Made by a program: the position numbers and the translations under genes. Source: Escherichia phage PSD2001. From it: a stretch of DNA of 64,000 nucleotides. The stretch's first letter is position 1. Each line of letters starts with the position of its first letter. The DNA lies in sequence record OK254198.1. One strand, given 5' to 3'. Positions 12,815-63,002 of this stretch are shown here, in pieces. The notes under the pieces are model-generated. The model saw only the letters and a program-made list of their open reading frames with translations. It searched no databases and was not told where the DNA came from.

Positions 12815-12816
12815 GT

Positions 12817-13507: not shown

Positions 13508-13515
13508 GAGGCATT

Positions 13516-16785: not shown

Positions 16786-16789
16786 GAAA

Positions 16790-16803: not shown

Positions 16804-16814
16804 TGGAGGTTTTT

Positions 16815-17637: not shown

Positions 17638-18291
17638 ATGGAACCAAAAGTAGGAATATCAATACCCGACCTACTTTTTGGACTTCTTGATAGAATTTTT
17701 AAAGATAATGCGACCGGGAAAGTTGTTTTTTCCAGGGTACTAGTTATTGTTCTATTATTTTTAATGGCGGTAATCTGGTATAAAGGTGATGCACTTTTAG
17801 ATGCGTACAGGGATGCTTCATATGCCTCATACACTGAAATGATAAGGCAAGACCAGGATAACAGATTTAAAATTGCAGCTATCGAGCAAATCCAGATAGT
17901 CCACTCGTCAAGTGGGGCAGACTTTACAGCAATATATTCTTTTAGACCAACTAACCTTAACTACTTTGTGGATATGGTGGGATACGAGGGGATATTGCCT
18001 GATACAGTCGACGAAAAAAATTTAGGTGGGTTTCCAATAGATAAAACTTCGGCGGAATATTTGGCGGGGGTTAATGGTAATTATTTTGAATCCAGTACGG
18101 AATCTGTATTCTTACCAACAAAGAAAAAAAGCAGCTTCACATATATGTTCAGCTGCCCATTCTTTAATTTGGAAAACGTTTATGCAGGTACAGTCTCACT
18201 GTACTGGTATAAGCAAAAACCTAACCTTGGTTTTGATAGGCTTTCTGCTATGTGTGGACAAGCAGGTCGTACGCTCGGGCGTACACGTTAG
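17638..18291 (+). CDS. t: holin T
   Basis: 217 aa; ...LLFGLLDRIFKDNATGKV...single TM...; matches T4 holin; late promoter TATAAATA upstream. Confidence 0.93.
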   Translation: MEPKVGISIPDLLFGLLDRIFKDNATGKVVFSRVLVIVLLFLMAVIWYKGDALLDAYRDASYASYTEMIRQDQDNRFKIAAIEQIQIVHSSSGADFTAIYSFRPTNLNYFVDMVGYEGILPDTVDEKNLGGFPIDKTSAEYLAGVNGNYFESSTESVFLPTKKKSSFTYMFSCPFFNLENVYAGTVSLYWYKQKPNLGFDRLSAMCGQAGRTLGRTR

Positions 18292-18796: not shown

Positions 18797-19078
18797 TCAA
18801 TCAATATAATCTTCTAAACCAAAATCATCAATTTCTTCTTGAATTTCTCTTAATACTTGTTCTTCATCTAGACCAGGACCAAAAATCACTTTAGCGTAGC
18901 CAGGTCGTTCACTAGAGAATCGAATTGTATATTCCGGTTGAATATAGCCAAAGCTGCTATCCAAATCACAAAGAATTTCTGCATAGATTTCGGCTGGAAC
19001 TGAAGCATGGATTTTAAAAAGCTCATCAATAAGAATAACCAATTCAGTTGCTTGATATGTATGGAGTTTAGTAATCAT
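18797..19078 (-). CDS. acidic protein in the T4 arn position (candidate Arn-like anti-restriction DNA mimic)
   Basis: 93 aa, strongly acidic C-terminus (EEQVLREIQEEIDDFGLEDYID); position between asiA and motA. Confidence 0.45.
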   Translation of the reverse strand: MITKLHTYQATELVILIDELFKIHASVPAEIYAEILCDLDSSFGYIQPEYTIRFSSERPGYAKVIFGPGLDEEQVLREIQEEIDDFGLEDYID

Positions 19079-22660: not shown

Positions 22661-22668
22661 ATATCACC

Positions 22669-22809
22669 TTACCAGATTAACGAATGTACTGCCATTATAG
22701 CATCAGAAATAAAAAGCACAACCTGCACTAATGCAAACATAACTCCATAATACAACGCCACCAATAAGGTAGCAAGGGCTAACGAGTAGCCCAGGATTTT
22801 CTTAATCAT
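22669..22809 (-). CDS. small membrane protein (46 aa); not in ORF track
   Basis: ATGA overlap with the upstream gene stop; hydrophobic; ends 8 nt before the gene 52 ATG. Confidence 0.4.
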   Translation of the reverse strand: MIKKILGYSLALATLLVALYYGVMFALVQVVLFISDAIMAVHSLIW

Positions 22810-22991
22810 TTGTTAACCGCTGATTCCAGAAATTTGACTAAGGCATCCAGTACAAACCATGTGCAAATAAATCCTGCAAAAAGAGTACTTGGGACCCATA
22901 CACCTGTAGCAAAAAGAGTCACAGCAACGATAACAGCTACGAGCCAGATAAAAGTAAAAACTGTTTGCATATTTTCCTCAAGGGCGTCCAA
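22806..22991 (-). CDS. small membrane protein (61 aa), in the T4 ac/stp region
   Basis: ORF track; two predicted hydrophobic helices. Confidence 0.5.
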
Positions 22992-23059
22992 AGACGCCAG
23001 TTAATTTCAGATTATGACGATGCCATTGCATCACGTGCTCATTATGGAAATTACTCATA

Positions 23060-23509
23060 TTAATAGCTCTGCAGAATGAATTTAAAGTTATCAGCAAGCA
23101 TGCGATTCATTTCTGAAAGGGTCTGACAATCAGAACTATGTGAGCGTGTGAACGCCATCGCAATTTGACCTTTACCATAACCAGTTGTCAAAGGTTTCAT
23201 TTTAGAAACTGGAACAAACAGGACTTCATAGATAACACCATTGTTCGCCATTGTGCGCGACAGTTGTGAACGCTGTTTGCGGATGTGACTTAATACAGTG
23301 TCAAACCCTTGTTGTGAACGTTGGTTACCAACGTAAAAACGTGCAGCAACAATACGTGATTCGCCTTCACCTTTAACCACGAAATAAAAACCTGGTTGGG
23401 TGATAGCTTCTTTAGTTGGACGCCCTACAACATAATTGCCATTATGGATGTGAGCAACAGTGGTAGCGCCAGCATTCAGTACGTCACGACGGGTCATGTA
23501 AGTAGTCAT
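23060..23509 (-). CDS. ndd: nucleoid disruption protein Ndd
   Basis: 149 aa; ...PGFYF...[29 protein letters not shown]...[12 protein letters not shown]...AFTR...[15 protein letters not shown] matches T4 Ndd. Confidence 0.9.
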
Positions 23510-23552
23510 ATTAATTTCCTCAGTAAGTTAAAGTTTTGTGCTCCAGTGGGGT

Positions 23553-23592
23553 CATTATACTCTGACCCCAAGAGTTTGTACACTATTTTTGA
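23553..23592 (-). promoter_or_regulatory. early promoter cassette with stem-loop spanning the -10 region
   Basis: ggggtcattatactctgacccc ... tttgtacactattttt. Confidence 0.55.
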
Positions 23593-23927
23593 AGTTGTTC
23601 TAAAATAAATCCGCTGGTGTAAAAGGGAGCATTATAAACCTTGTTCAGTGGGTTCAAAGCCTGTCCGTAAGTATCACATAGTTCTTTGATAACATTTTCA
23701 TAGCTTACATAATAACCACTATGATAATACGGGTCCATACTCATACGAAATTTAATGAACCGATAAAAGCCTGTTTCTGGGTCTTGAACGAAAACGAAAT
23801 CAGCACTCGTCATAATTTTTGAATCTACGCCGGGAATCATACTTTGATTGAATGCCGCCGATGCATCCTGAAGGCTGAGTTGTTTAAAGAACATCACCTT
23901 AGCATTACCAAAAAAGATTTTAGACAT
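23583..23927 (-). CDS. hypothetical protein (114 aa)
   Basis: Start set at internal Met with AAGGA RBS. Confidence 0.5.
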   Translation of the reverse strand: MSKIFFGNAKVMFFKQLSLQDASAAFNQSMIPGVDSKIMTSADFVFVQDPETGFYRFIKFRMSMDPYYHSGYYVSYENVIKELCDTYGQALNPLNKVYNAPFYTSGFILEQLQK

Positions 23928-23937
23928 GATAATTTCC

Positions 23938-24150
23938 TTATTCAGCGTCAACAGAAATAGCCATCAGTTCATCAACAGTAAGACACTGTACACTAGGACC
24001 TACGCAAAAACGCTTAGTTGAATCATTGAGGTCTGTAGCATTAACAGGTTGTAATTCGGTCCCAACTTGCAAAGGAGAAATACGAATAAGTTGTTGGCCA
24101 TTATGCAATACAAAGCTCTCACCGACTACCACATCTTTAAAAAGTTTCAT
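23938..24150 (-). CDS. hypothetical protein (70 aa)
   Basis: ORF track; GAGG RBS. Confidence 0.5.
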   Translation of the reverse strand: MKLFKDVVVGESFVLHNGQQLIRISPLQVGTELQPVNATDLNDSTKRFCVGPSVQCLTVDELMAISVDAE

Positions 24151-24167
24151 AATATTTTCCTCAGTAA

Positions 24168-24314
24168 TTAAAGAATTTCTTCAATTTGAATGTATTTGCT
24201 ATAACCTTCCTCAATGAGGATATCACGAGCACAATCAGCACTGATATAAGCATTAAAGCTAAGGGTTTTAATCACTTTACCATGCAGCTTTACTTTATAA
24301 ATTCGATTACCCAT
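24168..24314 (-). CDS. hypothetical protein (48 aa)
   Basis: Internal Met with GAGG RBS; intergenic cassette near-identical to that of 23938..24150. Confidence 0.45.
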   Translation of the reverse strand: MGNRIYKVKLHGKVIKTLSFNAYISADCARDILIEEGYSKYIQIEEIL

Positions 24315-24324
24315 AATATTTTCC

Positions 24325-24435
24325 TCAGAAGTTAAAGAATACGCGTACATGGTCAATCATAAAAACAATTGGGAAAATGCTCAGGACAACAAACAGTACA
24401 AACATGTTCCAAATGGCTTTAAGTAACTTTTTCAT
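24325..24435 (-). CDS. small hydrophobic peptide (36 aa); not in ORF track
   Basis: GGAG RBS and early promoter cassette upstream; coordinates approximate. Confidence 0.35.
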   Translation of the reverse strand: MKKLLKAIWNMFVLFVVLSIFPIVFMIDHVRVFFNF

Positions 24436-24460
24436 AATCATCTCCAGTAGTTGATAGGTT

Positions 24461-24498
24461 CATTATACTACAACCACTGGAGATGTACACTCTTTTAT
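24461..24498 (-). promoter_or_regulatory. early promoter cassette
   Basis: cattatacta...gatgtacactctttt. Confidence 0.55.
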
Positions 24499-24580
24499 GC
24501 AAGTTTCAATAATAATAAACTAAAACAAACGCAAATTACTGGGATGCACAACATCCAGATAAAACACCAGGTTCTGCTGC

Positions 24581-24844
24581 TCACAATTCCACCTCAATGA
24601 TTTCAAGTTGATTTTCAACAATTGCATGCTGAATACATTTATACACATCAATGGACCAGGAATTATTATATTGCCCATCAATCAAACGTTGAAGGTCTTC
24701 GCGAGTTGACAGATATGGTTGGTCTGATTCCCATTTTGATAAAAACATTGTGGTGTATGTATCGCCTTCGCCGGTGACAAAGGTCGCGGATGCAACAAAT
24801 TCCCCAGTAACTTTATGCTTGACATAGTAAAATTTAAATTTCAT
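24581..24844 (-). CDS. hypothetical protein (87 aa)
   Basis: Internal Met with GGAG RBS; early promoter cassette upstream. Confidence 0.5.
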   Translation of the reverse strand: MKFKFYYVKHKVTGEFVASATFVTGEGDTYTTMFLSKWESDQPYLSTREDLQRLIDGQYNNSWSIDVYKCIQHAIVENQLEIIEVEL

Positions 24845-24872
24845 TTTGTTTCTCCAGTCTGTTTGGTAACTC

Positions 24873-24912
24873 AGTATGAAGCCATTATGCACTGACTCCA
24901 TACTGATGTACA
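24873..24912 (-). promoter_or_regulatory. early promoter cassette
   Basis: aactcagtatgaagccattat...gatgtacactatttt. Confidence 0.55.
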
Positions 24913-24917
24913 CTATT

Positions 24918-25193
24918 TTAATTGTGCATTTGTTCTTTAACTTCTTTATATGCGCCAACTGCATTCACGACCCCAGTAAAATCTGCAGTACCGCGATAGA
25001 GATATAAAGCAATTTCAGTCAGGTGGTAGACTTCAAATTCTGAAAGATAAACGATAACGTCATAATATGCAACTTGACCCTGGACTTCGTTGAATACCAC
25101 ATCAAAAATTTCATGAGTTGGAAAATTGATGTTGTTGTTTTTGAGTGCTTGGATAAGAATTTGTTTGATGTTGTGAGTAGTAACGTGTTCCAT
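24918..25193 (-). CDS. hypothetical protein (91 aa)
   Basis: Internal Met with GAGGA RBS; the track ORF's 5' extension overlaps the next gene. Confidence 0.5.
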   Translation of the reverse strand: MEHVTTHNIKQILIQALKNNNINFPTHEIFDVVFNEVQGQVAYYDVIVYLSEFEVYHLTEIALYLYRGTADFTGVVNAVGAYKEVKEQMHN

Positions 25194-25222
25194 GATAATG
25201 TCCTCATTTGTTGGTATGAGGA

Positions 25223-25256
25223 CATTATTACACAGTTGGTTCAGCTTGTAAACCGG
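25223..25256 (-). promoter_or_regulatory. early promoter (-35 GTTTACA)
   Basis: cattattacacag...cttgtaaacc; hairpin cctcat...atgagg adjacent. Confidence 0.5.
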
Positions 25257-25834
25257 TGATAGGGAAATTTTTCTTCTGAACAAGAACGGAGGTACCAGCC
25301 ATCCCCTTGTGACTTTTGCACAAGACCAGACTCAGGAACGAAAGCACCAGGTCCAGCAAGGAATTTTGGCTTAAAACGATAACCTTTGATAGTCTCTTTT
25401 ACATTAAACATAATCATAAGGTCAGCAAGCTTGTGTTGCATAAAAGGACCAAGATTGACCCCGTAACCATGCGGATAATCGCCCTGGTGACCAGTATGCA
25501 CGGATATCCATTTGGAACCGGACTGATGAGTCTTGACTTCAATTCTTACGCCTTCTTTCGAAACTACATCAAATGCAAAGGAATAAGGATTATCGTAATC
25601 TTCATCACCGCCGCATAAAAAGCCGGAGGTCCATTTGGCAATAGCTTGTTCTGCCATTGTAGCCACCATACATCTTTGCATGACTTGCTCACGGTCCTGG
25701 CCAGGGTCTTTACGTAATGAATACCTGGCAGTGTCTACAATCTTTTGCAGTGATTCTGGGGTTAAGTCTTCTTTTGTATAAAGAAAGGAAGGCATCTTTT
25801 TCAGATGCTCCCATGTTTTACTCTTCTGAATCAT
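25241..25834 (-). CDS. hypothetical protein (197 aa) in the T4 denB (endonuclease IV) position
   Basis: Size and position next to rIIB resemble T4 denB; sequence identity not confirmed from memory. Confidence 0.45.
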   Translation of the reverse strand: MIQKSKTWEHLKKMPSFLYTKEDLTPESLQKIVDTARYSLRKDPGQDREQVMQRCMVATMAEQAIAKWTSGFLCGGDEDYDNPYSFAFDVVSKEGVRIEVKTHQSGSKWISVHTGHQGDYPHGYGVNLGPFMQHKLADLMIMFNVKETIKGYRFKPKFLAGPGAFVPESGLVQKSQGDGWYLRSCSEEKFPYHRFTS

Positions 25835-26087
25835 CTTTTACCTCATCGATACCGACGATTCCCCGGATATGAAGCTCGCCATAGTACAAACGGTCATTAG
25901 CATCAAATGTATCAGAATCCGGGTCAGGAAATTCCCCAACAACTACTTCATCACATTCCAACCAGCCATAGTGAACATCACCTTCATGCTTGATAAGCTT
26001 ACCACAGTAAACTATTCCTGCATAATGATGACCCCGGAGATTTGAAACTTTGATGTCACGGTCTGACACATTGAAATGCTTAATCAT
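25818..26087 (-). CDS. hypothetical protein (89 aa)
   Basis: ORF track. Confidence 0.5.
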   Translation of the reverse strand: MIKHFNVSDRDIKVSNLRGHHYAGIVYCGKLIKHEGDVHYGWLECDEVVVGEFPDPDSDTFDANDRLYYGELHIRGIVGIDEVKDDSEE

Positions 26088-26090
26088 AAT

Positions 26091-26288
26091 TTATTCACCA
26101 AAATAAGAGATACGAGTTGCCAGTACATGAGCATATGCGCCCATCGCATCTAACTGGGCAATCAAAAGACCTTGTTGACGAGCATCGAGAGTTTCAAAAA
26201 CTCCACCCTTAATAAACTCTTCAAGAGCATTAATTTTCAAAACCAGCTGGTCATATTCTTCAACTACACGTGCTTGGAAACCTAACAT
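26091..26288 (-). CDS. hypothetical protein (65 aa)
   Basis: ORF track; directly downstream of rIIB. Confidence 0.5.
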   Translation of the reverse strand: MLGFQARVVEEYDQLVLKINALEEFIKGGVFETLDARQQGLLIAQLDAMGAYAHVLATRISYFGE

Positions 26289-42174: not shown

Positions 42175-42456
42175 TTACAATTTGGCGGCTTGGACTGCTT
42201 TATTGGCTTCAGTCATTTTAGCTAGATTTTCAGCAGTAGGATTGACAATGTATTCGGCTGTAGCTTGAGCAAAAACATTATGAGTTTCGATTACATTTTT
42301 AGCATTTTCAATATTCATATCAATTTCTTGTTTAGATAAATTTTTTAGTTGATTGGCTAAGAGTTCTACAAAGATTTCAACATTAGCGTTTTCAATTATA
42401 TCATTAATATGCTTCTTACGAGCTTTCTTAAGCTGACGTTTATTTAAACGAGGCAT
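42175..42456 (-). CDS. hypothetical protein (93 aa)
   Basis: ORF track; start overlaps the gene 56 stop. Confidence 0.5.
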   Translation of the reverse strand: MPRLNKRQLKKARKKHINDIIENANVEIFVELLANQLKNLSKQEIDMNIENAKNVIETHNVFAQATAEYIVNPTAENLAKMTEANKAVQAAKL

Positions 42457-42974: not shown

Positions 42975-43058
42975 TATATTTTTCCTTATCAATTCATATT
43001 GTTTGTATGTTAATTATATCATATTGGTTTAAAGCATAAATACAAGAAAGGAGGATGT

Positions 43059-43256
43059 ATGCTCAAACTATCTAGTCTAATTCAAGCCATCAAAGGCAGT
43101 CGTAAGCGAACGATTCTGGTCCTTTCGATACTCTGTTTTGTTCTACTCTGGAATTTCATTGTTGCCCCTATTGCATTGACACATGGTGTTATATTACCAG
43201 TCGTCGCGCTCGAATCAGTTGTAGATGTTTCACTAGCATTAATCGGCCTTATATAG
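43059..43256 (+). CDS. small membrane protein (65 aa) on the opposite strand to its neighbours
   Basis: Strong AAGGAGG RBS; two hydrophobic helices; ATAAATA late-promoter-like motif ~30 nt upstream. Confidence 0.5.
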   Translation: MLKLSSLIQAIKGSRKRTILVLSILCFVLLWNFIVAPIALTHGVILPVVALESVVDVSLALIGLI

Positions 43257-43364
43257 GTGGAACTTACTGGTTGTGCCCATCGCTGCAACACAAGGGGTGC
43301 ACTTACCCCAGGTCACAATGGAACATATCCATTCCATCATCGGTTACTTTACCGGAATCCCTTC

Positions 43365-44393
43365 CTAAACTTTTGCGTACTTCGAAAGTCGCATTCTCGC
43401 CATCAATCCTTGAGCAACGTTATCGGCCATATATGATTCGATTTGTTCAGGGGTTGCCCCTTCTGATTTAACCATCTCATTTATGTCTTTTGTATGCCAT
43501 GGCGCATTGTCCCAGAACATAACAGCTTCGCCAGCTTCAACGAGCTTCTTCATACGTTTAATCGTATCCGGATGTCTTGGCTCGTTGTCCATCACCCACA
43601 CTCTGGTTTCTGGATAAGGAACAGCTTCTAATGCTAATGTTCCACCGGTTATCGCAATGCTGTTAGGGATAAACAAACTATCAATCGGACCTTCCATTAC
43701 CCATACACGTTTACGCTCATCAATCTTGTCTACGCCATAGACTTTGGAAGCTTCTGGGTGAGCTTTGATTGTGATATATTTTTGTGGTGCATCTTTGCGA
43801 AGAGCTCGTCCTTGGAAAGATTCGATTTCTTTTTTGCCGTTGAAGATAGGAATAACCAAGCGTGGTTCATTCGTTTCATTCTTATACGTCCCAGGATTAA
43901 CGGAGTTAACTAATGCAGGCCATTGGTTTGTAAACCATAGTCGGTTCCAAACATTGCTTGGAATACATCGACTTTTTACATACTTAACTATCGGATGTGC
44001 TTCTGGTAAAGTATCGAGTCTTTCACAAAAAGCAAGCTGCTCGATAACCGGAGTTTTTTCTGGTTCTTTCGGAGTTTCAATGACTTCATTGCGTTGTCGC
44101 CCGAAGGCGTTCTCCTTGTACTTCTCAACCATATATTCCCGGTGTAAATCAGGCTCAAACTCTTTTATGTATTTGCTTATATGCGTGGAGTAGTCACAGT
44201 TAAAACATTTCACATAAACCGCACCATCAGACGGATTGGTATACGCCCAGAATCGAGCCTTGTGTGAATCTTTCTGGGAGTCCCCGCAAACCTTACAACG
44301 ACAGTTTGCTTTAAATGTGCTCCCGGTGACTTCTCTATAACGTGGTTGATACGATAAAGCTCTGACTGCAAATTCTTTATCAATATATGACAT
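43365..44393 (-). CDS. 61: DNA primase gp61
   Basis: 342 aa; N-terminal zinc-ribbon CRCKVCGDS...CFNC; same length as T4 gp61. Confidence 0.93.
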   Translation of the reverse strand: MSYIDKEFAVRALSYQPRYREVTGSTFKANCRCKVCGDSQKDSHKARFWAYTNPSDGAVYVKCFNCDYSTHISKYIKEFEPDLHREYMVEKYKENAFGRQRNEVIETPKEPEKTPVIEQLAFCERLDTLPEAHPIVKYVKSRCIPSNVWNRLWFTNQWPALVNSVNPGTYKNETNEPRLVIPIFNGKKEIESFQGRALRKDAPQKYITIKAHPEASKVYGVDKIDERKRVWVMEGPIDSLFIPNSIAITGGTLALEAVPYPETRVWVMDNEPRHPDTIKRMKKLVEAGEAVMFWDNAPWHTKDINEMVKSEGATPEQIESYMADNVAQGLMARMRLSKYAKV

Positions 44394-47808: not shown

Positions 47809-49248
47809 TTAGAATTTCATTTGAGCAGCAAGGTCGTCCAGGTCGCTCCTGTTGACCCTGGTTTGTCTATTCATTTCAGCCTGGCGATTCATCTCACCGG
47901 TGGCTTCTTTAACCGTAGGGCCTTGTTTAGGAGCTGAATCATCATCAATCTCGTACCAGCGCTGATTGCCTTTCTTAACACCCATCTTGAATTTATTATA
48001 GTAGTTCTTATCGCCATAACGAGACTTAAGCTGTTTGATTAACTGTAGTCCCATTTGAGCGAATTCTTCGGTCTCAACAACACCCAACATAAAGTCGGCC
48101 GTGTGAGCAATACCAAAGGATTCTGCGATGTCAGCCATATCAATCTCAGCTGCAACGTTTGCGCCCCTTGTTGTCTGCGCTGCAGTCCACAGGACTACAT
48201 TTTTCTCGACCGCCAGACCACGAAGTTCTTCTGCAACCATCTTAATCAGACCGTAACTGTTTTCGGTAAACGTTTTCAGTCTTGAGCTTGCACAGATTGC
48301 CAGGTAGTCAACAATAATCACATCCGGCACAAACCCTTGCTTCAGTTTGTATTCATTCAATAATGCACGGAAGGTATCCGCATGAGCACCGCCAGTTGGA
48401 TATTGTTTTATCTTCAGAGTCCCAAGAGTCCCGGCTGCACGCCATTTTTCCATCTTAGCTTTATATTCCGCCCATGACACATGACCTTCATCAATATCAT
48501 CCAGAGATACATCCAGCAAGTTGGCATCAATACGTTTGGCACATACTTCTTCAGCCATTTCCATGCTTATATAAAGCACGTTATGACCAGTCTGAAGATA
48601 GTCGGCCGCTAACGAACAAAGTCCCAGAGATTTCCCGACGTTGGTCCCGGCCAGTAAAACGTTCTCTGTGCCGTACTCAACTCCACCCTTCGTGATTTTA
48701 TTCAGGATGTTAATGCGGAACGGAACCTTTTTCGATTTGTTCAGATAAGTCTGGAATCGAGCTTCGTAATCGTTTAACCAATCATGGCCCAGAGCAGAGT
48801 CAAAACAGATAGACAATGCATCGCGCATGATGTCGGGGATAGCACCAATATCCGGGATTCGTTTATCACGTTTATCTTTCGGAAGTTCGGCATTACTCTG
48901 GATTTCGATAATCCTGGATGTGGCATTGAACATCGCAGATTTCTGCACATACTTCTCGGTTTCTCTAACCAACCATTCTTGGTCTTCTGGAGTATCGGCC
49001 AGGACTCCTAAGAGTTTCTTTGTGCCTTCATATTCGACTTCAGAAAGGTCAGAACTGTCGAGCGCGATATCAAGTGCAGTCTTAGTTGGTACCGCTTGAT
49101 ATTCTTTTACGTGTTCGTTAATCGTATTAAAAAGGGTCTTCGCGGGACCCTTTTCAAAATATGTGTTATTCAGATACGGCCAGACTTTAACAAAATATTC
49201 CTTGTTAAAGAGTAGCTGGGATAAAATAGTTTCTACCACTTCCACCAC
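47809..49248 (-). CDS. 41: replicative DNA helicase gp41 (DnaB-like)
   Basis: 479 aa; Walker A ...GTNVGKSLGLCSLA...; close to the T4 gp41 length. Confidence 0.95.
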   Translation of the reverse strand: MVEVVETILSQLLFNKEYFVKVWPYLNNTYFEKGPAKTLFNTINEHVKEYQAVPTKTALDIALDSSDLSEVEYEGTKKLLGVLADTPEDQEWLVRETEKYVQKSAMFNATSRIIEIQSNAELPKDKRDKRIPDIGAIPDIMRDALSICFDSALGHDWLNDYEARFQTYLNKSKKVPFRINILNKITKGGVEYGTENVLLAGTNVGKSLGLCSLAADYLQTGHNVLYISMEMAEEVCAKRIDANLLDVSLDDIDEGHVSWAEYKAKMEKWRAAGTLGTLKIKQYPTGGAHADTFRALLNEYKLKQGFVPDVIIVDYLAICASSRLKTFTENSYGLIKMVAEELRGLAVEKNVVLWTAAQTTRGANVAAEIDMADIAESFGIAHTADFMLGVVETEEFAQMGLQLIKQLKSRYGDKNYYNKFKMGVKKGNQRWYEIDDDSAPKQGPTVKEATGEMNRQAEMNRQTRVNRSDLDDLAAQMKF

Positions 49249-49577
49249 CTCTTTTTCATTTTAATCTTATCAATTTCATCTTGTATTTGCATTGTAACAC
49301 ACTTTTCTACATGCACTGCAAGCTCCGCTTTGCGGTCTTCAGAAGGGGTGCCGAAATCAACTGAAACTTTTCCAGATGGTTCAATTTTAATTCCGGTTAC
49401 GTACACAATGTGACTGGACCCATCAGGGAGTGATAACAGAATTTCCTGCCGTACAGTTCCCATGGATTGCCGGATAATCTCCAAACTTTTTTCGTAGTAA
49501 GGTACAGAAGGAGCCTTAGCTCCCTCCGCATCTTTCTCGAAATTATCTAAATCAGATAAATCGATATCATTCATCAA
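49233..49577 (-). CDS. 40: head vertex assembly chaperone gp40
   Basis: 114 aa between 41 and uvsX; size and position match T4 gene 40. Confidence 0.6.
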   Translation of the reverse strand: MMNDIDLSDLDNFEKDAEGAKAPSVPYYEKSLEIIRQSMGTVRQEILLSLPDGSSHIVYVTGIKIEPSGKVSVDFGTPSEDRKAELAVHVEKCVTMQIQDEIDKIKMKKRWWKW

Positions 49578-50745
49578 GGTCTTCCATCATATCTAAATCG
49601 TTTTCGATATCTGCCGCAGATGGTTTTGCCTTACCTTCAGGAGCAGTGTATTTTTCAACCTTGGAGGCAATAAGCGCATCAACTTCGGCATCAACAACAG
49701 CATTGCTATCGATTGCACCCAGTTGGTAATGGCGTTTGATTGCATCACGGAAAGGTTCGTGTTTGAACAGTGGGCCCCAGAATTCGGTGCAGTTAGTATC
49801 TTTTGCGCGCCATGATTTTTCTTCGCGGACCATTTCACCGGTCTCAACATCAAGATATTCACGGTTATACCAACCAACTTTTGGTTTCACCACAAATCCG
49901 ATTTCCATTGCCATATCAAGCAGGCCAGAATACGGGTCAATACCGCCATCGAATTTTACATCAATGAAGAATTTACTTTTCTCTTTGACCATACGAGATT
50001 TTTCGGCGTTCAGAACAAATTGGAAGCCTTCAAGTTCTTTACCAGTTTCTTTAATCTGGCGTTTGCCGATAATGAATACGGTGTCCGCGGAATACATAAC
50101 ACCTGTACCGCCGGTCATAACGGTTTTGCTATACATCTCAATCGTCTCGATTGTATGGTTAACCGCGACACAAGGAATATCCTTGATGCTAAAATACGGG
50201 GTAACAATACGGAACAGAGATTTCAGGGATTTGGCACGAGTCATATCACCAACGACTTTTTCGTTCATTGCATCTTCTGTTTCTTTTTTCGACGCCATGT
50301 TACCGATTGAGTCAATAAAGATAATGACTTTTTCACCACGCTCAATTGCTTCAAGCTGATTAACCATATCAACTTTCAATTGTTCAACCGACTGGATTGG
50401 TGTATGGATAACACGTTCCGGGTCAACTTTCATTGCACGAAGATATGCTTCTGTGATACCAAATTCTGAATCATAGAACAAACAGATTGCATCGGGGTAT
50501 TTGTTCATATATGCAGAGACCATCGTTAAACCCATATTGGATTTAAAGTGTTTTGACGGACCAGCAAAAATAGTCAAACCTGACTGCATACCACCATCTA
50601 GTGCACCGCTGATTGCAATGTTCAGCATCGGGATTTTTGTACGAACTACATCTTTATCATTAAAGAACTTGGACTTGGTAAGAGTCGCGGTCATTTTGGA
50701 TGTAGAAGCTTTAATCAAACGGGATTTCAAATCTGCAATAGACAT
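49567..50745 (-). CDS. uvsX: UvsX recombinase (RecA-like)
   Basis: 392 aa; N-terminus MSIADLKSRLIKASTSKMTA...; RecA-fold ATPase motifs. Confidence 0.95.
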   Translation of the reverse strand: MSIADLKSRLIKASTSKMTATLTKSKFFNDKDVVRTKIPMLNIAISGALDGGMQSGLTIFAGPSKHFKSNMGLTMVSAYMNKYPDAICLFYDSEFGITEAYLRAMKVDPERVIHTPIQSVEQLKVDMVNQLEAIERGEKVIIFIDSIGNMASKKETEDAMNEKVVGDMTRAKSLKSLFRIVTPYFSIKDIPCVAVNHTIETIEMYSKTVMTGGTGVMYSADTVFIIGKRQIKETGKELEGFQFVLNAEKSRMVKEKSKFFIDVKFDGGIDPYSGLLDMAMEIGFVVKPKVGWYNREYLDVETGEMVREEKSWRAKDTNCTEFWGPLFKHEPFRDAIKRHYQLGAIDSNAVVDAEVDALIASKVEKYTAPEGKAKPSAADIENDLDMMEDLDE

Positions 50746-50830
50746 TCATTTTTTCCATAGGCACCATTATATTTTTCTCACAGGTTTAAGATAGGATAAT
50801 TATATCACTGTATTTTCAGAGCAATTAATG

Positions 50831-51334
50831 TTAGTTAATACCTTGGCGTGCTTTCTCTTTAGCTACACATTTATTAATATAGCTCAGACGGTTTTGAGCA
50901 GAACGCTGATACATATCGCGATACTCATTGGCTTTTGGAGAACCCGTCTCCGCTGCCTGATAAGCTTCAGCGCGCATGATGTTTATCTGCATATTGATAT
51001 ATGACATGCAGACCTGTGAAATCTGGTTAACAGTATCCAGGTCATTTTGTCGCTTGGTTTTTGCTTCCAGCTTGGCAATGATTTCGTCATGCTTCGCCGC
51101 TTGCTCGCGTTTGTACTCAATTTCACGTTGAGCATATTTCGCGCAGTTGTTTCCGCATTGATTGTTGTCGCGTTTGTAGATAAGTCCAGTACCACCTTTG
51201 AAATCAAAGGAACCATTATGCACCTGACGGTCCGCAGCAATTCGCGCTTTACCAATCTCGTTGGCATTAACAACATCACCCTGGTAAGCACAACCAGATA
51301 GCAGCATAACAGCTGCGATAGCTAACTTTTTCAT
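50831..51334 (-). CDS. lipoprotein (167 aa; signal peptide with LLSGC lipobox)
   Basis: MKKLAIAAVMLLSGCAYQG...; occupies the slot where T4 has beta-gt/42. Confidence 0.6.
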   Translation of the reverse strand: MKKLAIAAVMLLSGCAYQGDVVNANEIGKARIAADRQVHNGSFDFKGGTGLIYKRDNNQCGNNCAKYAQREIEYKREQAAKHDEIIAKLEAKTKRQNDLDTVNQISQVCMSYINMQINIMRAEAYQAAETGSPKANEYRDMYQRSAQNRLSYINKCVAKEKARQGIN

Positions 51335-51342
51335 TTTGCTTC

Positions 51343-51486
51343 CTAATTAAAACATTCATAGCGGGCTTGGAGCCCCAAAAATACCCAACCCAAAATTAAA
51401 GTTGGAATCATATGTGGAGTCATTATTGCCCAGTAGATTGACATACTAAAAAATGCAATCAGTACAATAATTGTAATTATCTTCAT
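51343..51486 (-). CDS. small membrane protein (47 aa); not in ORF track
   Basis: ATGA overlap with the imm stop; hydrophobic; AGGAAG RBS for the lipoprotein follows. Confidence 0.4.
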   Translation of the reverse strand: MKIITIIVLIAFFSMSIYWAIMTPHMIPTLILGWVFLGLQARYECFN

Positions 51487-51725
51487 TTTGCTTCCTTGAT
51501 GATAATTACTTGTGCGTTTGATTTACGTTCAGCAACGAGTGCCCAGATAAATGCAATAAACCATCCGACCATTGTCCAACCTAACAGGAGGTTAACAAAG
51601 AAGATTCCGCAATTACTTTTGGTTCCACGCAGTAGCGCGATAATCCACGGCAGAAAATATGCTAGTGCAGCCAGGAAGAAAGAACCTGCACCAAGAACAA
51701 CAGTACCCGCAATTAATGTTTCCAT
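51483..51725 (-). CDS. imm: superinfection immunity protein Imm-like (two TM helices)
   Basis: 80 aa; ...LPWIIALLRG...FFVNLLLGWTMVGWFIAFIWAL... resembles the Imm family; directly upstream of 43 as in T4. Confidence 0.65.
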   Translation of the reverse strand: METLIAGTVVLGAGSFFLAALAYFLPWIIALLRGTKSNCGIFFVNLLLGWTMVGWFIAFIWALVAERKSNAQVIIIKEAK

Positions 51726-51759
51726 TTTAATATCCTTAAGTTATTCATCAGTTGATGAG

Positions 51760-51795
51760 GTAATCATACGGCAATCCATTGCCGTTGTAAACACT
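51760..51795 (-). promoter_or_regulatory. early promoter (-35 GTTTACA) with 8-bp stem-loop in the spacer, upstream of imm
   Basis: acggcaatccattgccgt hairpin followed by ttgtaaacac. Confidence 0.45.
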
Positions 51796-54509
51796 TAAAA
51801 GTCAAACATGTCAAAAAGAGTTGCTTTCTTTTCGTAATCAACCTTTGCAGCTTCAGAGAAACCTGTTAATGGCTTAACAAAAGTCTTCTGGAACAGTGTG
51901 TTGTAGTCCATCCACTGCAGAACCTGGTCACGGATTTCAATCGGGAGTTCAATCCCAGATGGCCATGCAATCACGGTTTCACCAAACGGGTTACCAACTT
52001 TAAGAGGAAGTACATACACCTTTTCCCCTTCCATGATTTGCGGAACAGTCTTCAGACCTTTAGTTGCACGCATATATGCAAGCACACCTTTGATATGAGC
52101 AGGACACTTAAATCCAGGGAAACCGCCTTCATTATATTTCTGGATGTTGTTAACCGATGATACACCAGCGATGGTCATGTAGTTAAGCTCATTAAATTCC
52201 TTATTGAATTCCTTGAAGTATGTCTGCAGAGATTCTTCGCCTTCTTGCAGCATACGGCGGATACATTCTTTCAGAGCTTTCTGACATGCCTTTGGAGTAC
52301 TCGACTTTTGAGTTTCCAGACCCATGATTTTCAGTTTCGGAACAGCATATCGCGTGCCTTCCATATCGTACACGTTCAACGCATAACGCTTCTTCGCCGT
52401 CCAGAATCCACCCACACCTTTAGAACCCAGCGGAGGACATGCAATCGCCTCACGGTCCATAAACATAAGGTGCTGTTTGTTGTTCATGTATTCAGCCAGC
52501 TCACGGAAAGCTTTATCGATTGCCGGTTCCAGACGGTCTTTCGCAAACTTGTCCATGAAGTCAACCAGGTGGTTTGTATCACGGAATTTAGATTCGCCAC
52601 CAACCTTTTTAATCAGGTTATCGCATTGGATATAAATGGAGTCAGTATCGCCATAGAACACATAAGTTTCGCCGCTTGTCCCACAAACACTATCGAAGTA
52701 TTCGTTAACTTTACGCTCAATCCACTGCAATGCAAGTTGTCCGAAAGATGTAATCGCGGTTGCATTTCGCAGGTCAAAGTAACGGAACCAGATATTGCCC
52801 AGAGCGCCATAACAACTGTTGATAAGCAGTTTACGGTTAATCTGTGCGGTCATGCCTGCAACTTCTTCCATCTGTGCTTTGTACAACATACCATTCAGGA
52901 CTGTTTGATTCAGACCATGCAAGGTTGTTTTCATATTGTCATCAAAGTCATGACGATAATCAACTTCAGGCTCGGTTGTACCAGTTCCTGGATTACGCAG
53001 AGCTTCCTTAATCAGTTCACCATTACGTTGAGCCGCAAGCATATAGCCTTTGTGTTCTTTACGCTGATTAAACACCTTGGTGACTTCTGTCGGAATAATA
53101 CCCGCAACATCTTTAAAATACATCATACCATTTGGAGCACAACTAAATGTATCAGACGGACGGTCAGCAGTTCCTGCGATGTATTCATACATCTGGGCTG
53201 GTGCAAATGAACCGGCAATCGTTTCTGGACTGATGTTAATCTGTCGGATAATGCTTGGATACAGAGATGTTAAGTCACAGCTCATTACATATTTGTATGC
53301 GTTCGGAATCGGTTCCTTAACAAATGCACCAGGGAATGATTGACGAACATGTGATTTGGTTTCCGGAATGACTTTGTTTTGAGTCTTCAGGCTGTTAAAG
53401 ATAATCGCATCCCAAGTTTTGATTGGGCTGAATACAGACTGAATCTGCATTTTTGCATAATAACCCATTGACTGGCTCAGATTAATAAACTGTCGCTTAC
53501 GGTCAATCTGCACAACACGATAAACGTCGATGATGTTATAAGAAATATACCGCTGGTGATTTGATTCGCGCAGTTTAGAAATCGGGCCATCATACGGGAG
53601 TTTACCAACACCCAGTTCAGATTCCGCAACATAATCCAACGAATAAGACGGTTGGTTTGTGAAGCTGAACTTTTTATACAGGTCCAGATAATCCAGAACA
53701 GAGATACCCAGAATCTGAATGATTTCTTGTTCTTCACCAAAGCCATTGTTAATGACCTTAACTTTTGTACGACGATGTGGACTCAGACGTTTTGCCGTAG
53801 CTTCACCAAATACATTTTTAAGGCGGTTGTAGATATATGGAATATCAAATTTCTCGATGTTCCAACCAGTTAACATAACCGGAGTTTTCTCGTTCCAGAA
53901 TACCAAATACTGCTGGAGCATTTCTTCTTCTGAATCGAAAGCCATATAAACAATTTTTTCCAGGATTTCTTCAGGGACTTCATCGCCACCGTCTTCCTGC
54001 AGCTTAGCAGCAATATCAATAGACCATTGCTCCACAGTGGCGTATGGTGAGCTCAAAAGGTCAAAGACATAGAATTTATCGTCTACCGAATCATAGTGCG
54101 TCAGGGCATCAATAGGGTGACGTGCTTCAGACGGCTCAGGAAACCCATCGGGAGATGTCACCTCGATATCGAAGTTAGCAACACGGATTTTACTTGAATC
54201 ATATTTGATTTCGTGCGGGTAACGGTCGGACAAGTATGCGAGTTTAAAGTCGTCCATACCCATAGCTTCGAGACCCATGTCATTCATTCGCTTCATCCAC
54301 TGGGATGCATCACGCATGGAATCGAATTCTTTTTTCACACAACCTTTATTATAGATGTCTGTATACTTTGCAGCTTGGTCTTCACGGGCGTGCATAAACA
54401 AGCATGGAGCATAAGGGATTTCACGAACACGTTCATGACCATTCTTGTCAATATATCGTTCGTGTAGGTTGTCACCGATTTGTTCGATAGTTAAATAAAA
54501 TTCTTGCAT
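51795..54509 (-). CDS. 43: DNA polymerase gp43 (family B), single uninterrupted ORF
   Basis: 904 aa; N-terminus MQEFYLTIEQIGDN..ERYIDKNG.ER.RE..Y matches T4 gp43; exonuclease and polymerase motifs. Confidence 0.97.
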   Translation of the reverse strand: MQEFYLTIEQIGDNLHERYIDKNGHERVREIPYAPCLFMHAREDQAAKYTDIYNKGCVKKEFDSMRDASQWMKRMNDMGLEAMGMDDFKLAYLSDRYPHEIKYDSSKIRVANFDIEVTSPDGFPEPSEARHPIDALTHYDSVDDKFYVFDLLSSPYATVEQWSIDIAAKLQEDGGDEVPEEILEKIVYMAFDSEEEMLQQYLVFWNEKTPVMLTGWNIEKFDIPYIYNRLKNVFGEATAKRLSPHRRTKVKVINNGFGEEQEIIQILGISVLDYLDLYKKFSFTNQPSYSLDYVAESELGVGKLPYDGPISKLRESNHQRYISYNIIDVYRVVQIDRKRQFINLSQSMGYYAKMQIQSVFSPIKTWDAIIFNSLKTQNKVIPETKSHVRQSFPGAFVKEPIPNAYKYVMSCDLTSLYPSIIRQINISPETIAGSFAPAQMYEYIAGTADRPSDTFSCAPNGMMYFKDVAGIIPTEVTKVFNQRKEHKGYMLAAQRNGELIKEALRNPGTGTTEPEVDYRHDFDDNMKTTLHGLNQTVLNGMLYKAQMEEVAGMTAQINRKLLINSCYGALGNIWFRYFDLRNATAITSFGQLALQWIERKVNEYFDSVCGTSGETYVFYGDTDSIYIQCDNLIKKVGGESKFRDTNHLVDFMDKFAKDRLEPAIDKAFRELAEYMNNKQHLMFMDREAIACPPLGSKGVGGFWTAKKRYALNVYDMEGTRYAVPKLKIMGLETQKSSTPKACQKALKECIRRMLQEGEESLQTYFKEFNKEFNELNYMTIAGVSSVNNIQKYNEGGFPGFKCPAHIKGVLAYMRATKGLKTVPQIMEGEKVYVLPLKVGNPFGETVIAWPSGIELPIEIRDQVLQWMDYNTLFQKTFVKPLTGFSEAAKVDYEKKATLFDMFDF

Positions 54510-54573
54510 TTGGTTTCCTTTATAGTCGAGTGATTGACTTTTGTTTTATGACTTGACGCTATTATACTACAAA

Positions 54574-54589
54574 AGGGACCGAAGTCCCT
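54574..54589 (-). terminator. rho-independent terminator after regA
   Basis: agggacCGAAgtccct + T-rich tail. Confidence 0.7.
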
Positions 54590-54599
54590 TTGCTTTAAA

Positions 54600-54968
54600 T
54601 CAATTACCAATTGTATATTTGGCTACGAGCTTCCAGTCGTCTTTTTGTTTGAATGAAATAACACGGAAGTTATTTGTTACTGCGAACAATTCATTATGCT
54701 CTTCTTCTTTGATAGCAATTAAGCCCCAGTCTTCAAGCAGTTGGGCGATGGAATCACGGCGCTGATAGTCTTCGCCGTCAATATCAACCTGACGACCATC
54801 CATGCGCAGCATTTCTTTGAAGTGAACAATATAATAACGACCTTGCTTTTGGAGGATGTGGCAGCTCTGGTACAGTACACGGTCTTTATTATTTGCGATG
54901 CCCATACGGGTCAGAGTTTCTTTAACTTTCAGGAAGTCTTCAGGTTGCTTTAATGTAATTTCAATCAT
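54600..54968 (-). CDS. regA: translational repressor RegA
   Basis: 122 aa; near-identical in pattern to T4 RegA (MIEITLK.PEDFLKVKETLTRMGIANNKD.VLYQSCHILQK...). Confidence 0.95.
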   Translation of the reverse strand: MIEITLKQPEDFLKVKETLTRMGIANNKDRVLYQSCHILQKQGRYYIVHFKEMLRMDGRQVDIDGEDYQRRDSIAQLLEDWGLIAIKEEEHNELFAVTNNFRVISFKQKDDWKLVAKYTIGN

Positions 54969-54969
54969 T

Positions 54970-55548
54970 TTACCATTCCAATATTTGTTTTTTAATTTCT
55001 TTTTGTTCTTTCACATTACTGGTAACGGTCTTTAAGAATTCATCCGTTACCAGACCTTTTGTCTTTTTCAAAACATCTTTAAGACTACCTTTGACTTTCA
55101 ATGTTTCCATATACATCAAAGCATCATCTGCATTAATTGTATAATATTTCATCAAAAGCTTAAGCACAAGCTGGACGTTGACTACATCCGGTTCAGCCTT
55201 GGCCCATTTGCCATAACGCTTGCCTTGTGGAACTGCATGCAGCAAATAATTATAATGCTGCTGGTCTGTTAACCCGGAACCGATTAAGTTCATCACGTTC
55301 ACCTGCATGATGCAATCAACATGTTGACTCAATGCGTTATCCAGCCAGAATTTATTGTAGTTTTCCGATTGAATCAGGTTCCGTGGTTTTTTGCTAACGG
55401 TTATGTCGTTAAGAATCGCGAACAATTCATTTTCTGCTTTCTCTTTGTATGAATCGGACAATTCCTGAATTTTGTTAAAGTCGCGTGATTTCCACGCAAC
55501 TTCATGTTCGTTTAATTGAACGTCATCATCAAAGAGACTTACAGCCAT
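54970..55548 (-). CDS. 62: clamp loader small subunit gp62
   Basis: 192 aa; position between regA and 44. Confidence 0.85.
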   Translation of the reverse strand: MAVSLFDDDVQLNEHEVAWKSRDFNKIQELSDSYKEKAENELFAILNDITVSKKPRNLIQSENYNKFWLDNALSQHVDCIMQVNVMNLIGSGLTDQQHYNYLLHAVPQGKRYGKWAKAEPDVVNVQLVLKLLMKYYTINADDALMYMETLKVKGSLKDVLKKTKGLVTDEFLKTVTSNVKEQKEIKKQILEW

Positions 55549-61818: not shown

Positions 61819-61958
61819 AAGCCAAGCACCGTTATCGCAATGCAAAATAAAATTACTGAAATGAACCCGTCAGGAGTAGAAAAGAATCCTATCCAACAAG
61901 CTCTTGTGAATGTGTAGAATGCCATGAATAACACGACATATCCTAAAAATAATTCCAT
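61815..61958 (-). CDS. small membrane protein (47 aa), translationally coupled to gene 47; not in ORF track
   Basis: GAGGAG RBS; stop overlaps the gp47 ATG; hydrophobic. Confidence 0.4.
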   Translation of the reverse strand: MELFLGYVVLFMAFYTFTRACWIGFFSTPDGFISVILFCIAITVLGL

Positions 61959-62008
61959 ATACTCTCCTCAGTTGGTTCATTTTATCATCCCGAATATAAA
62001 GCAAAAAA

Positions 62009-62027
62009 GGAAGCGCTAGGCTTCCTT
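62009..62027 (-). terminator. stem-loop terminator in the 47-55 region
   Basis: aggaagcGCTAggcttcct + T-run. Confidence 0.5.
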
Positions 62028-62189
62028 TCCAATTAATACACCGTACAGAGGTTCGTGAGAAGACCTGAACTTGATAGGCTTATAGGTAATAGTACCTTCA
62101 TTTTCTGCTTTAATGCGAGCGGCTTCAAATTGAAGAATCATCTCGTTTTTGTCAGATTTAATCTTATCAAAATCCATCGAATTCATCAT
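62016..62189 (-). CDS. hypothetical small protein (57 aa); not in ORF track
   Basis: Hand-translated; AAGAGG RBS; coordinates approximate (+/-1). Confidence 0.3.
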   Translation of the reverse strand: MMNSMDFDKIKSDKNEMILQFEAARIKAENEGTITYKPIKFRSSHEPLYGVLIGKEA

Positions 62190-62247
62190 TCATATAACCT
62201 CTTAAACTTTTTCGTATTCGTCGTTCATTAGCCTGCTGTCCATGTTA

Positions 62248-62454
62248 TCATCGTTGCCACCATTTCTTAAGTTGATGTGAGTCTACCCAAACTTTGGATG
62301 TCGGCTCAATTTTAACAATACCTTTTGGAACACCATAAGGGCCAAGGAGCTTACATTCGGTTTCGGTCTGCTTGATACAGATATCACCATATGAGCGAAA
62401 TCTGAAAGCGGCCCCTACACGAAGCCGCTTAAACGGTTTATTTACTAATGCCAT
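62248..62454 (-). CDS. hypothetical protein (68 aa)
   Basis: ORF track. Confidence 0.45.
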   Translation of the reverse strand: MALVNKPFKRLRVGAAFRFRSYGDICIKQTETECKLLGPYGVPKGIVKIEPTSKVWVDSHQLKKWWQR

Positions 62455-62749
62455 TTACGATTTCCCAAATTTGTTTGCGAGTAGTTTCCCACATCAACTT
62501 AATCAGGTCTTCCGTAACTGGTTGGCGGTAAATTCCACGCAGTTTAACTAAAGCATATTTGTATGCTTCAAAATTGTTTTCCAGCACTGCCCCTTGAGCA
62601 TGCTTATTCAGTCGTGCAATTTCACGAGCATTCTTTTTCAGAATCTTTGCTGCTTGACTCTGTGCTTCGAGTGCGTTCGCTTCTTCGAGACGTTCCTGTG
62701 CTTCTTCAATCTGCTTATCGGTCAGTTGAGAAATATCTGGAGCTTGCAT
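62438..62749 (-). CDS. hypothetical protein (103 aa)
   Basis: ORF track. Confidence 0.5.
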   Translation of the reverse strand: MQAPDISQLTDKQIEEAQERLEEANALEAQSQAAKILKKNAREIARLNKHAQGAVLENNFEAYKYALVKLRGIYRQPVTEDLIKLMWETTRKQIWEIVNGISK

Positions 62750-62750
62750 A

Positions 62751-63002
62751 TTAATCCTTGGGAGTTAACTCAATTGTAAAATATAGATTAGCATTATCCA
62801 CATGATAACGGTAATCAACGTTATTATCCGGTGAAGTAAATTCCAGATTCCGGACGTTTAAAGGGTCGATATCAATTGGAAGACCTTTTATGTCTCGTAG
62901 ATAAAGTTTAATGAAATATGGGAGAGCCGTAAAGTCTTCCTCGATTTTATCTAAAAAATCGGTAATATCAAATTGATGTTCCATATAAAAAATCCAAATC
63001 AC
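62751..63002 (-). CDS. hypothetical protein (83 aa)
   Basis: ORF track. Confidence 0.45.

Follow-up and report, generated by a model that had tools for sequence, protein, structure and literature searches.

Several described systems for replacing the cytosine of phage DNA bear on the locus considered here. The T4 system comprises gp56, gp42, gp1 and the alpha- and beta-glucosyltransferases, together with DenA, DenB and Alc, which act on cytosine-containing DNA; T4 DenB, or endonuclease IV, is specific for such DNA. Phages of the RB69/JS98 type carry arabinosyl-5-hydroxycytosine, and their enzyme is a homologue of thymidylate synthase (TS) that has Asp at position 177 and acts on deoxycytidine monophosphate (dCMP) (PMC13326640). 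In Xanthomonas phage XP12, 5-methylcytosine replaces all cytosine, and the system of Pseudomonas phage PaMx74 is of the same type. Here we compare with these systems a stretch of 64,000 nucleotides from Escherichia phage PSD2001 (sequence record OK254198.1), hereafter the window, which lacks gene 42 and the glucosyltransferase genes and in which td is the sole gene of the TS family. The td product carries Asp in place of Asn at the position that sets pyrimidine specificity. Judging from this and the other sequence features described below, td has probably been converted in place to a dCMP C5-methyltransferase, such that the phage DNA would contain 5-methylcytosine in place of cytosine.

The td product (window Td) matches PF00303 with 303.7 bits and TIGR03284 with 281.8 bits, against a cut-off of 108, and it matches the T4 TS of structure 1TIS with E 2.8e-127. 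Pfam, NCBIfam and PHROGs all name it thymidylate synthase, and the Asp type is not separable by these libraries. Positions are given here in E. coli numbering, which relies on a ThyA sequence checked with 15 landmark residues. The catalytic Cys146 and residues R21, E58, Y94, R166, H207 and Y209 are all conserved relative to E. coli ThyA, and window Td agrees with the T4-type and JS98 Td at 17 of the 18 tabulated active-site and catalytic positions. Among the features kept are Leu143, Cys146, His147, Asp169 and the C-terminal APMAV. The sole mismatch is at residue 177, where window Td reads PFDIGSYG and T4 TS and the other solved TSs read PFNIASY; SP18 Td, from a close relative introduced below, likewise has Asp at this position and JS98 Td has Asn. 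In window Td, Ala179Gly and Ala182Gly accompany Asp177. Thus the fold, the family and the catalytic residues are those of ThyA, but the Asn177 that selects deoxyuridine monophosphate (dUMP) is replaced by Asp. Because of this replacement, we would not file window Td as a thymidylate synthase, whatever databases call it.

There are published rules that link these residues to substrate and product. Asn177 sets the pyrimidine specificity of TS for dUMP or dCMP (PMC8670742, PMC13326640). According to the passages of these two papers that cite Hardy & Nalivaika 1992 and Liu & Santi 1992, the single substitution N177D in the E. coli enzyme or N229D in the L. casei enzyme yields a dCMP methylase, and the passages that cite Graves et al. 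1992 give Asp179 of T4 gp42 as the mirror case. At residue 143, bulky side chains correlate with methyl products and acidic ones with hydroxymethyl products, and D169N marks the 5-hydroxy-dCMP synthases (PMC13326640). In our alignment, T4 gp42 has D143 and D177, and JS98 gp039 has E143, N169 and D177. Window Td shows the pattern described for a dCMP C5-methyltransferase, which is Asp177 with a non-acidic residue 143 and Asp169 kept. The pattern of a 5-hydroxy-dCMP synthase, which is D169N in the enzyme and a linked arabinosylation cluster, is found neither in window Td nor in the window. Given Asp177, Leu143 and Asp169, the published rules predict that window Td is a 5-methyl-dCMP synthase. 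Relevant here is that co-expression of the XP12 TS homologue with T4 gp1 in E. coli leads to 5-methyldeoxycytidine (5-methyl-dC) in DNA, and that, of seven metagenomic TS homologues for which residue 177 predicted a 5-methyl-dCMP product, five likewise gave 5-methyl-dC in E. coli DNA with T4 gp1 (bioRxiv 10.1101/2024.12.05.627091).

The engineered enzymes resemble window Td in that the identical single substitution occurs in an otherwise canonical TS, and dCMP methylase activity is reported for them in the cited passages. They differ in being laboratory mutants, whereas the change in window Td is natural, is fixed across a genus and comes with Ala179Gly and Ala182Gly. XP12 has a single annotated TS homologue with Asp at 177, located beside a dCMP deaminase and a dihydrofolate reductase, and its DNA carries a non-glycosylated 5-substituted base for cytosine, as is predicted for the window phage. 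However, within the TS family the XP12 protein is only distantly related to window Td (phmmer E 6e-29); it has Pro147 and Asn143 and lacks a C-terminus of the TS type, whereas window Td is the T4 td orthologue at the td locus. In addition, XP12 is a siphovirus without annotated homologues of gp56, DenB and Alc.

The 49000-55000 interval of the window is 98.3% identical to Shigella phage SP18, a member of the genus Gaprivervirus (Tevenvirinae). There are 32 phage records that span this interval almost in full and all have the same layout without gene 42, which makes the layout a lineage trait rather than the defect of a single isolate. The Asp-type td is similarly a property of the lineage. Among the 120 protein clusters nearest to window Td, the four closest (85-99% identity; SP18, CJ20, YenM_P8 and others) have Asp and the two Ala-to-Gly changes, and the next 114 clusters, which come from other T-even phages and reach at most 70% identity, have Asn in the motif PFNIASYA. 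In two Gaprivervirus clusters, PFDIGSYG is present in every sequence read that covers the motif. Asp is found in all of VR7, VR25, VR26, UPEC01, DK-13, P479 and MN01, every one of which is annotated as encoding a thymidylate synthase. It is also kept in P0050, a metagenomic T4-like frd-td contig whose Td is only 67% identical but has many clade-specific residues in common with the others. Besides the window, there are 8 sequences with Asp in an alignment of the 150 nearest 50%-identity representatives. These counts of Asp and Asn were read from alignments, since many sequences were overlooked when the motif was counted with a regular expression.

A second occurrence of Asp is found in Acinetobacter phages 133 and ZZ1, which lack a modification enzyme yet keep DenB, Alc and dCTPase (PMC8056088). 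Their td motifs are GKPFDIASY and GMPFDIASY, respectively. In the complete genome of phage 133, td is the sole TS-family gene, and 56, cd, alc, denB, frd and gene 1 are present. Several metagenomic relatives in the Acinetobacter T4-like clade are also of the Asp type. By sequence, phages 133 and ZZ1 and these relatives probably have a 5-substituted cytosine made by td. The controls have Asn, and they include T4 and JS98, which possess a separate dCMP-modifying enzyme, as well as Acj9 and RB49; the genus of RB49 is without the 5-hydroxymethylcytosine (hmC) gene, denB and alc (PMC12115623). A rough neighbour-joining tree places the enterobacterial Asp clade beside enterobacterial Asn-type td and the Acinetobacter Asp groups inside the Acinetobacter clade. 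Since the two sets of Asp-type sequences lie apart in this tree, the switch happened more than once. Asp occurs in about 6-8% of related sequences, and by a rough estimate the chance of finding it in all three of the lineages with this paradoxical gene content is about 1e-4 to 1e-3.

The window begins at the start of nrdA and continues with td, frd, 32, the tail fibre genes, motA, 52, denB, rIIB-rIIA, 39, dda, modA/B, soc, 56, 61, 41, 40, uvsX, imm, 43, 62, 44, 45, 46 and 47, stopping just beyond gene 55. The frd-td arrangement is the same in SP18 and VR7. All genes from uvsX to gp43 are on the minus strand. The corresponding slot on the T4 map holds segA, beta-gt and gene 42. The initial annotation of this DNA had reported gene 42 and beta-gt to be missing from the uvsX-43 interval and the 47-55 interval to hold four small open reading frames (ORFs) without alpha-gt, and both statements hold (Table 1): the first slot contains a lipoprotein-like ORF, a 47-amino acid peptide and imm, and the four ORFs of the second are the a-gt.2 to a-gt.5 of the SP18 annotation. 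The layout in VR7, another Gaprivervirus, is identical in kind. The expectation that the slot should hold gene 42 and beta-gt is, however, too narrow, because in Dhakavirus it is filled instead by a 5-hydroxy-dCMP synthase and a sugar-activation module.

In JS98 this module comprises five genes, gp038-gp042, which occupy about 4.2 kb (22069-26243 of the sequence examined) of the uvsX-imm interval, and Dhakavirus VR5 has the same arrangement. JS98 gp039 is a distant relative of gp42 (24.5% identity, E 2e-8, PF00303), and gp042 is a fusion of nucleoside triphosphate (NTP)-transferase and kinase domains. A 2026 paper lists Dhakaviruses among the carriers of the cytosine arabinosylation cluster (PMC13326640). 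The JS98 annotation of gp038-gp042 still reads hypothetical proteins, thymidylate kinase and phosphoheptose isomerase. The window phage resembles JS98 in that both have a TS homologue with Asp177, and differs from it in that the D169N change and E143 of gp039 are not in window Td and that neither the window nor SP18 contains the kinase-like gene, the NTP-transferase/kinase gene or the putative glycosyltransferase gp038. Relative to its sister genus Dhakavirus, the Gaprivervirus slot is without the entire module.

The missing enzymes are not found elsewhere. In the window and in the complete 170,605-bp genome of SP18, tblastn with T4 gp42, alpha-gt, beta-gt and Dam gives matches no better than E ~1, and the best values for the alpha- and beta-glucosyltransferases are 1.3 or worse, with only small ORFs in the canonical intervals. 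Homologues of JS98 gp038-gp042 are also not detected by tblastn in either sequence, although the flanking gp043 and gp044 do match. No gp42-like TS homologue (acidic residue 143, Asp177, about 246 amino acids) is found in them by tblastn or phmmer with T4 gp42 and JS98 gp039 as queries. A hidden Markov model (HMM) of the TS family, applied to six-frame ORFs of at least 40 amino acids, recovers one member in the window (td), one in SP18, one in Acinetobacter phage 133 and two in JS98. Relocation of gene 42, alpha-gt, beta-gt or Dam can therefore be rejected by the tblastn and HMM searches over the window and SP18, and so, for the complete SP18 genome, can the option left by the initial annotation that the modification genes sit elsewhere. 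Neither the adenine methylase of T4 nor its sugar transferases are present in the phage. The gap between gp56 and gene 61 (42992-43365) has no dam, unlike in T4, and a Dam homologue is absent from all of SP18 by tblastn.

The absence of gene 42 in this lineage is thus real, and it has already been published as an open puzzle. A 2021 paper noted that Gaprivervirus is without any known enzyme for non-canonical bases and yet has DenA, DenB, Alc and dCTPase, and suggested that a protein not yet recognised is responsible (PMC8056088). The same paradox was restated in 2025. Both papers infer that a non-canonical base or enzyme yet to be discovered has to exist, and on this account the later one offers no advice on therapy for the genus (PMC12115623). 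One possibility, in keeping with these papers, is that an unrecognised enzyme elsewhere makes an unknown cytosine derivative and that the change in Td is secondary. There are many small ORFs of unknown function that might accommodate such an enzyme, and we sought a lineage-specific one by comparing the ORFs of SP18 and the window of at least 50 amino acids with the full JS98 genome. What is left after this comparison (nrdD, nrdG, homing endonucleases, internal head proteins, a T4-type gp38, a 695-amino acid ORF in the baseplate gene block and ORFs of 168 amino acids or less) includes no enzyme candidate, and we reject the idea of a lineage-specific new enzyme. The 167-amino acid ORF of the gene-42 slot was also rejected as a replacement enzyme, since it is a lipoprotein-like homologue of JS98 gp043 that has no match in Pfam or NCBIfam. 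Moreover, the Td explanation requires no extra gene and is backed by the convergence seen with 133, ZZ1 and the tree. An unrecognised enzyme is therefore quite improbable. Among the papers covered by our search, which left most subscription journals outside, none connects 5-methylcytosine or a td of the Asp type with Gaprivervirus, SP18, the VR phages, 133 or ZZ1. The absence itself is already published, and the likely answer through td conversion would represent XP12-type chemistry placed within the T-even framework of cytosine replacement.

The DNA of one Gaprivervirus, VR7, has been studied by restriction digestion. The part of the study by Gordeeva et al. that concerns restriction digests with and without T4 beta-glucosyltransferase (PMC6326788, Suppl. 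Fig. S4) describes 'modified cytosines' in unglycosylated VR7 DNA. The same part lists VR5 and T4 DNA as glycosylated and a T4 mutant as hydroxymethylated, with VR7 classed apart, and the portion on BREX states that VR7 is blocked completely. Because VR7 has the same layout as the window, its modified, non-glycosylated cytosines disfavour unmodified cytosine, which was the first option of the initial annotation. The third, a different cytosine modification, fares best of the three, but its probable enzyme was missed even though it lies at td in the same window.

Retention of gp56 and a denB-position ORF had also been pointed out, and both genes are present, with full-length similarity to T4 gp56 and a clear match to T4 DenB (Table 1). 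Use of gp56 as a sign of modification is less secure, because Pseudotevenvirus and Krischvirus keep a gp56 homologue but are without an hmC gene, denB and alc (PMC12115623 Table 4), so that gp56 taken alone is weak evidence. More is indicated by the retention of denB, to which alc, located outside the window, can be added. SP18 also carries gp1, cd, denA and alc, and the general scheme, in which deoxycytidine triphosphate (dCTP) is destroyed and a 5-substituted dCTP is rebuilt, would be that of T4. The lineage differs from T4 in that the window and SP18 are without gp42 and the glucosyltransferases, the predicted modification is methyl and not glucosyl-hydroxymethyl, and the enzyme would be derived from td.

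Perhaps this phage simply has ordinary cytosine, with gp56 serving only as a dUTPase, DenB and Alc being retargeted or regulated, and the Asp of Td being tolerated or giving a sluggish TS. The Pseudotevenvirus and Krischvirus precedent and the fact that a modification enzyme is annotated in no Gaprivervirus would fit this idea. Nevertheless, VR7 DNA is described in the same part of the report as resisting methylation-sensitive enzymes (PMC6326788), and Asp has been conserved throughout a clade in which identity falls to 85% and 67%. Asp recurs, furthermore, in 133 and ZZ1, which are exactly the other phages that keep DenB and Alc without gene 42, and RB49 has Asn. These observations make ordinary cytosine very improbable.

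The proposed conversion of td can be placed in a pathway in which every enzymatic step is predicted. The dedicated dCMP-modifying module would have been dropped and td, after the Asn-to-Asp change at its specificity position, would have taken over. First, gp56 would convert dCTP and deoxycytidine diphosphate to dCMP. The Asp-type Td would then use dCMP and methylene-tetrahydrofolate to produce 5-methyl-dCMP and dihydrofolate, and the translationally coupled Frd would regenerate tetrahydrofolate. The phage deoxynucleoside monophosphate (dNMP) kinase gp1, whose T4 version is described as promiscuous (bioRxiv 10.1101/2024.12.05.627091), and the host nucleoside diphosphate kinase would make 5-methyl-dCTP. 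Its incorporation by gp43 would give sugar-free virion DNA with 5-methylcytosine for cytosine, and the unmodified host DNA would be left open to DenB and likewise to DenA and Alc, whose genes lie outside the window. Finally, thymidylate might come from the phage dCMP deaminase Cd acting on 5-methyl-dC nucleotides, as in XP12, from the host ThyA, or from salvage of host DNA. Deamination of 5-methyl-dC nucleotides has been proposed as the thymidylate source in 5-methylcytosine phages, in which a second TS is then unneeded (bioRxiv 10.1101/2024.12.05.627091). On balance, we lean slightly towards a broader scenario in which the genus swapped a sugar-decorated hydroxy(methyl)cytosine for plain 5-methylcytosine, lost its own TS and came to obtain thymidylate through deamination of 5-methyl-dC or from the host, with 133 and ZZ1 having done so independently.

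Several points weigh against 5-methylcytosine production by Td. Accelerated evolution of td or gp56, considered as a sign of changed function, gives no usable signal. The divergence of td from JS98 is ordinary (69% identity, where the median of neighbouring genes is about 70%), and gp56 is somewhat conserved (83%). gp56, DenB and Alc would all have to spare 5-methylcytosine substrates, a tolerance that we predict. Chemical support for Gaprivervirus DNA is limited to the VR7 restriction digests. Two of the seven metagenomic TS homologues predicted to make 5-methyl-dCMP gave none (bioRxiv 10.1101/2024.12.05.627091). In addition, the proposal would leave the phage without a thymidylate synthase of its own. 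This last difficulty would be removed if the Asp-type Td were bifunctional and methylated both dUMP and dCMP, in which case the phage would keep its own source of thymidylate and its cytosine would be partly methylated. Such an enzyme is conceivable given that the tabulated active-site positions other than 177 are T4-type. However, N177D is described, in the passages of PMC8670742 and PMC13326640 that treat it, as shifting preference from dUMP to dCMP, and the retained dCTPase favours complete over partial replacement. XP12-type phages also cope without a second TS (bioRxiv 10.1101/2024.12.05.627091), and we regard bifunctionality as improbable.

A further point of this kind is that the rule for residue 143 is a correlation only, and the XP12 enzyme, with Asn143, departs from it in the other direction. 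The correlation leaves some room for an Asp-type Td that hydrates the reaction intermediate, which would yield non-glycosylated 5-hydroxymethylcytosine and make td a functional replacement for gene 42. Asp177 is indeed common to T4 gp42 and window Td, and the relevant part of the VR7 report speaks merely of 'modified cytosines'. Yet Leu143, His147, Asp169, the C-terminal closing segment and all other tabulated positions are those of a T4-type Td, and the engineered N177D and N229D enzymes are methylases in the passages that cite them. The wording of Gordeeva et al. points the same way, since the part of their paper on the T4 beta-glucosyltransferase assay names the T4 mutant 'hydroxymethylated' and VR7 just 'modified' (PMC6326788). 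We consider hydroxymethylation by Td unlikely, if the least so of the alternatives discussed here, and favour methylation.

If the methylation proposal is true, one td residue would provide a specific answer to the published Gaprivervirus puzzle, and T4-like phages would have to be counted among the few viruses in which 5-methylcytosine replaces cytosine completely. The name 'thymidylate synthase' would be wrong for more than 70 database entries. These phages would have a predictable defence profile, in which many type II enzymes are resisted and sensitivity to McrBC-type systems and BREX is expected. The family would also provide, as a natural series, td genes from before and after a substrate switch. 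Moreover, gp56, DenB and Alc of these phages must in that case distinguish cytosine from 5-methylcytosine, and they could serve as probes for that discrimination.

Table 1. Coordinates of the features discussed, in the window unless another phage is named.
Feature	Position	Strand	Evidence or remark
td, TS-family protein, 286 amino acids	925-1785	-	Asp187 corresponds to E. coli Asn177; sole TS-family gene in the window
frd, dihydrofolate reductase	1782-2363	-	PF00186, 76 bits; stop overlaps td start by 4 nucleotides
Arn-like candidate, 93-amino acid ORF	18797-19078	-	T4 arn position, between asiA and arn.2
denB, endonuclease IV homologue	25241-25834	-	46% identity to T4 DenB, E 2e-58; phrog_1360, 270 bits
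gp56, dCTPase/dUTPase homologue, 172 amino acids	42456-42974	-	70% identity to T4 gp56 over full length, E 7e-80; 83% to JS98 gp56; PF08761, phrog_173; between soc-like ORF and gene 61
uvsX	49567-50745	-	PF21134 and PF00154; left border of slot (T4 and JS98 maps)
Junction of uvsX and next ORF, 85 bp	50746-50830	.	ORF coordinates; site of the modification module in relatives, missing here
167-amino acid ORF, lipoprotein-type N-terminus (LLSGC)	50831-51334	-	52% identity to JS98 gp043; phrog_1754, unknown function
47-amino acid hydrophobic membrane peptide	51343-51486	-	Matches JS98 gp044; VR7 counterpart annotated gp42.1
imm, superinfection immunity protein	51483-51725	-	PF14373, 64 bits
gp43 DNA polymerase	51795-54509	-	PF03104 and PF00136; right border of slot
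47-55 interval, four small ORFs	61846-62967	-	ORF list (62016-62189, 62248-62454, 62438-62749, 62751-63002); a-gt.2 to a-gt.5 of SP18 annotation
Asp-type 'thymidylate synthase' gene, phage 133	30517-31464		
Asp-type 'thymidylate synthase' gene, phage ZZ1	301-1233		

There is also a candidate for an anti-restriction function in the window. The Arn-like ORF has a weak match to phrog_3151 (McrBC inhibitor) with E 4.9e-6 and is 36% identical to T4 Arn over 36 amino acids (E 5e-6), and it has a strong match, with 138.7 bits, to the unnamed family phrog_8202. The segment 18789-19075 is without a match in SP18. As an anti-McrBC accessory, this ORF would possibly suit DNA that has a non-glycosylated 5-substituted cytosine.

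Some minor observations concern alc and soc. In SP18 (138071-138821) and VR7 (136496-137243), a second short ORF comes after alc, and its annotation notes similarity to the N-terminal region of Alc. This partial duplication is conserved between the two phages. Between soc and gp56 of the window lies a 93-amino acid ORF (42175-42456, minus strand) whose N-terminal half is Soc-like (phrog_5782, virion structural protein). The same place is occupied by the homing endonuclease segF in VR7, and two copies of soc are annotated in SP18.

Other differences from relatives are found towards the start of the window. Compared with SP18, about 620 bp (235-858) are inserted between nrdA and td, with small minus-strand ORFs at 259-504 and 564-863, the first of which has no JS98 counterpart. 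The holin gene t (17638-18291, plus strand) encodes a protein that is 99.5% identical to that of JS98, whereas its neighbours are at about 70-80%, which suggests that Gaprivervirus and Dhakavirus exchanged this gene recently. The distal tail-fibre block (10108-17597) is almost without nucleotide match to SP18. A 261-amino acid ORF at 16815-17600 is 76% identical to the JS98 gp244 adhesin, which is annotated as T6-like, and SP18 instead has a T4-type gp38 of 181 amino acids. The tail-fibre block is a host-range cassette that has been swapped within the genus.

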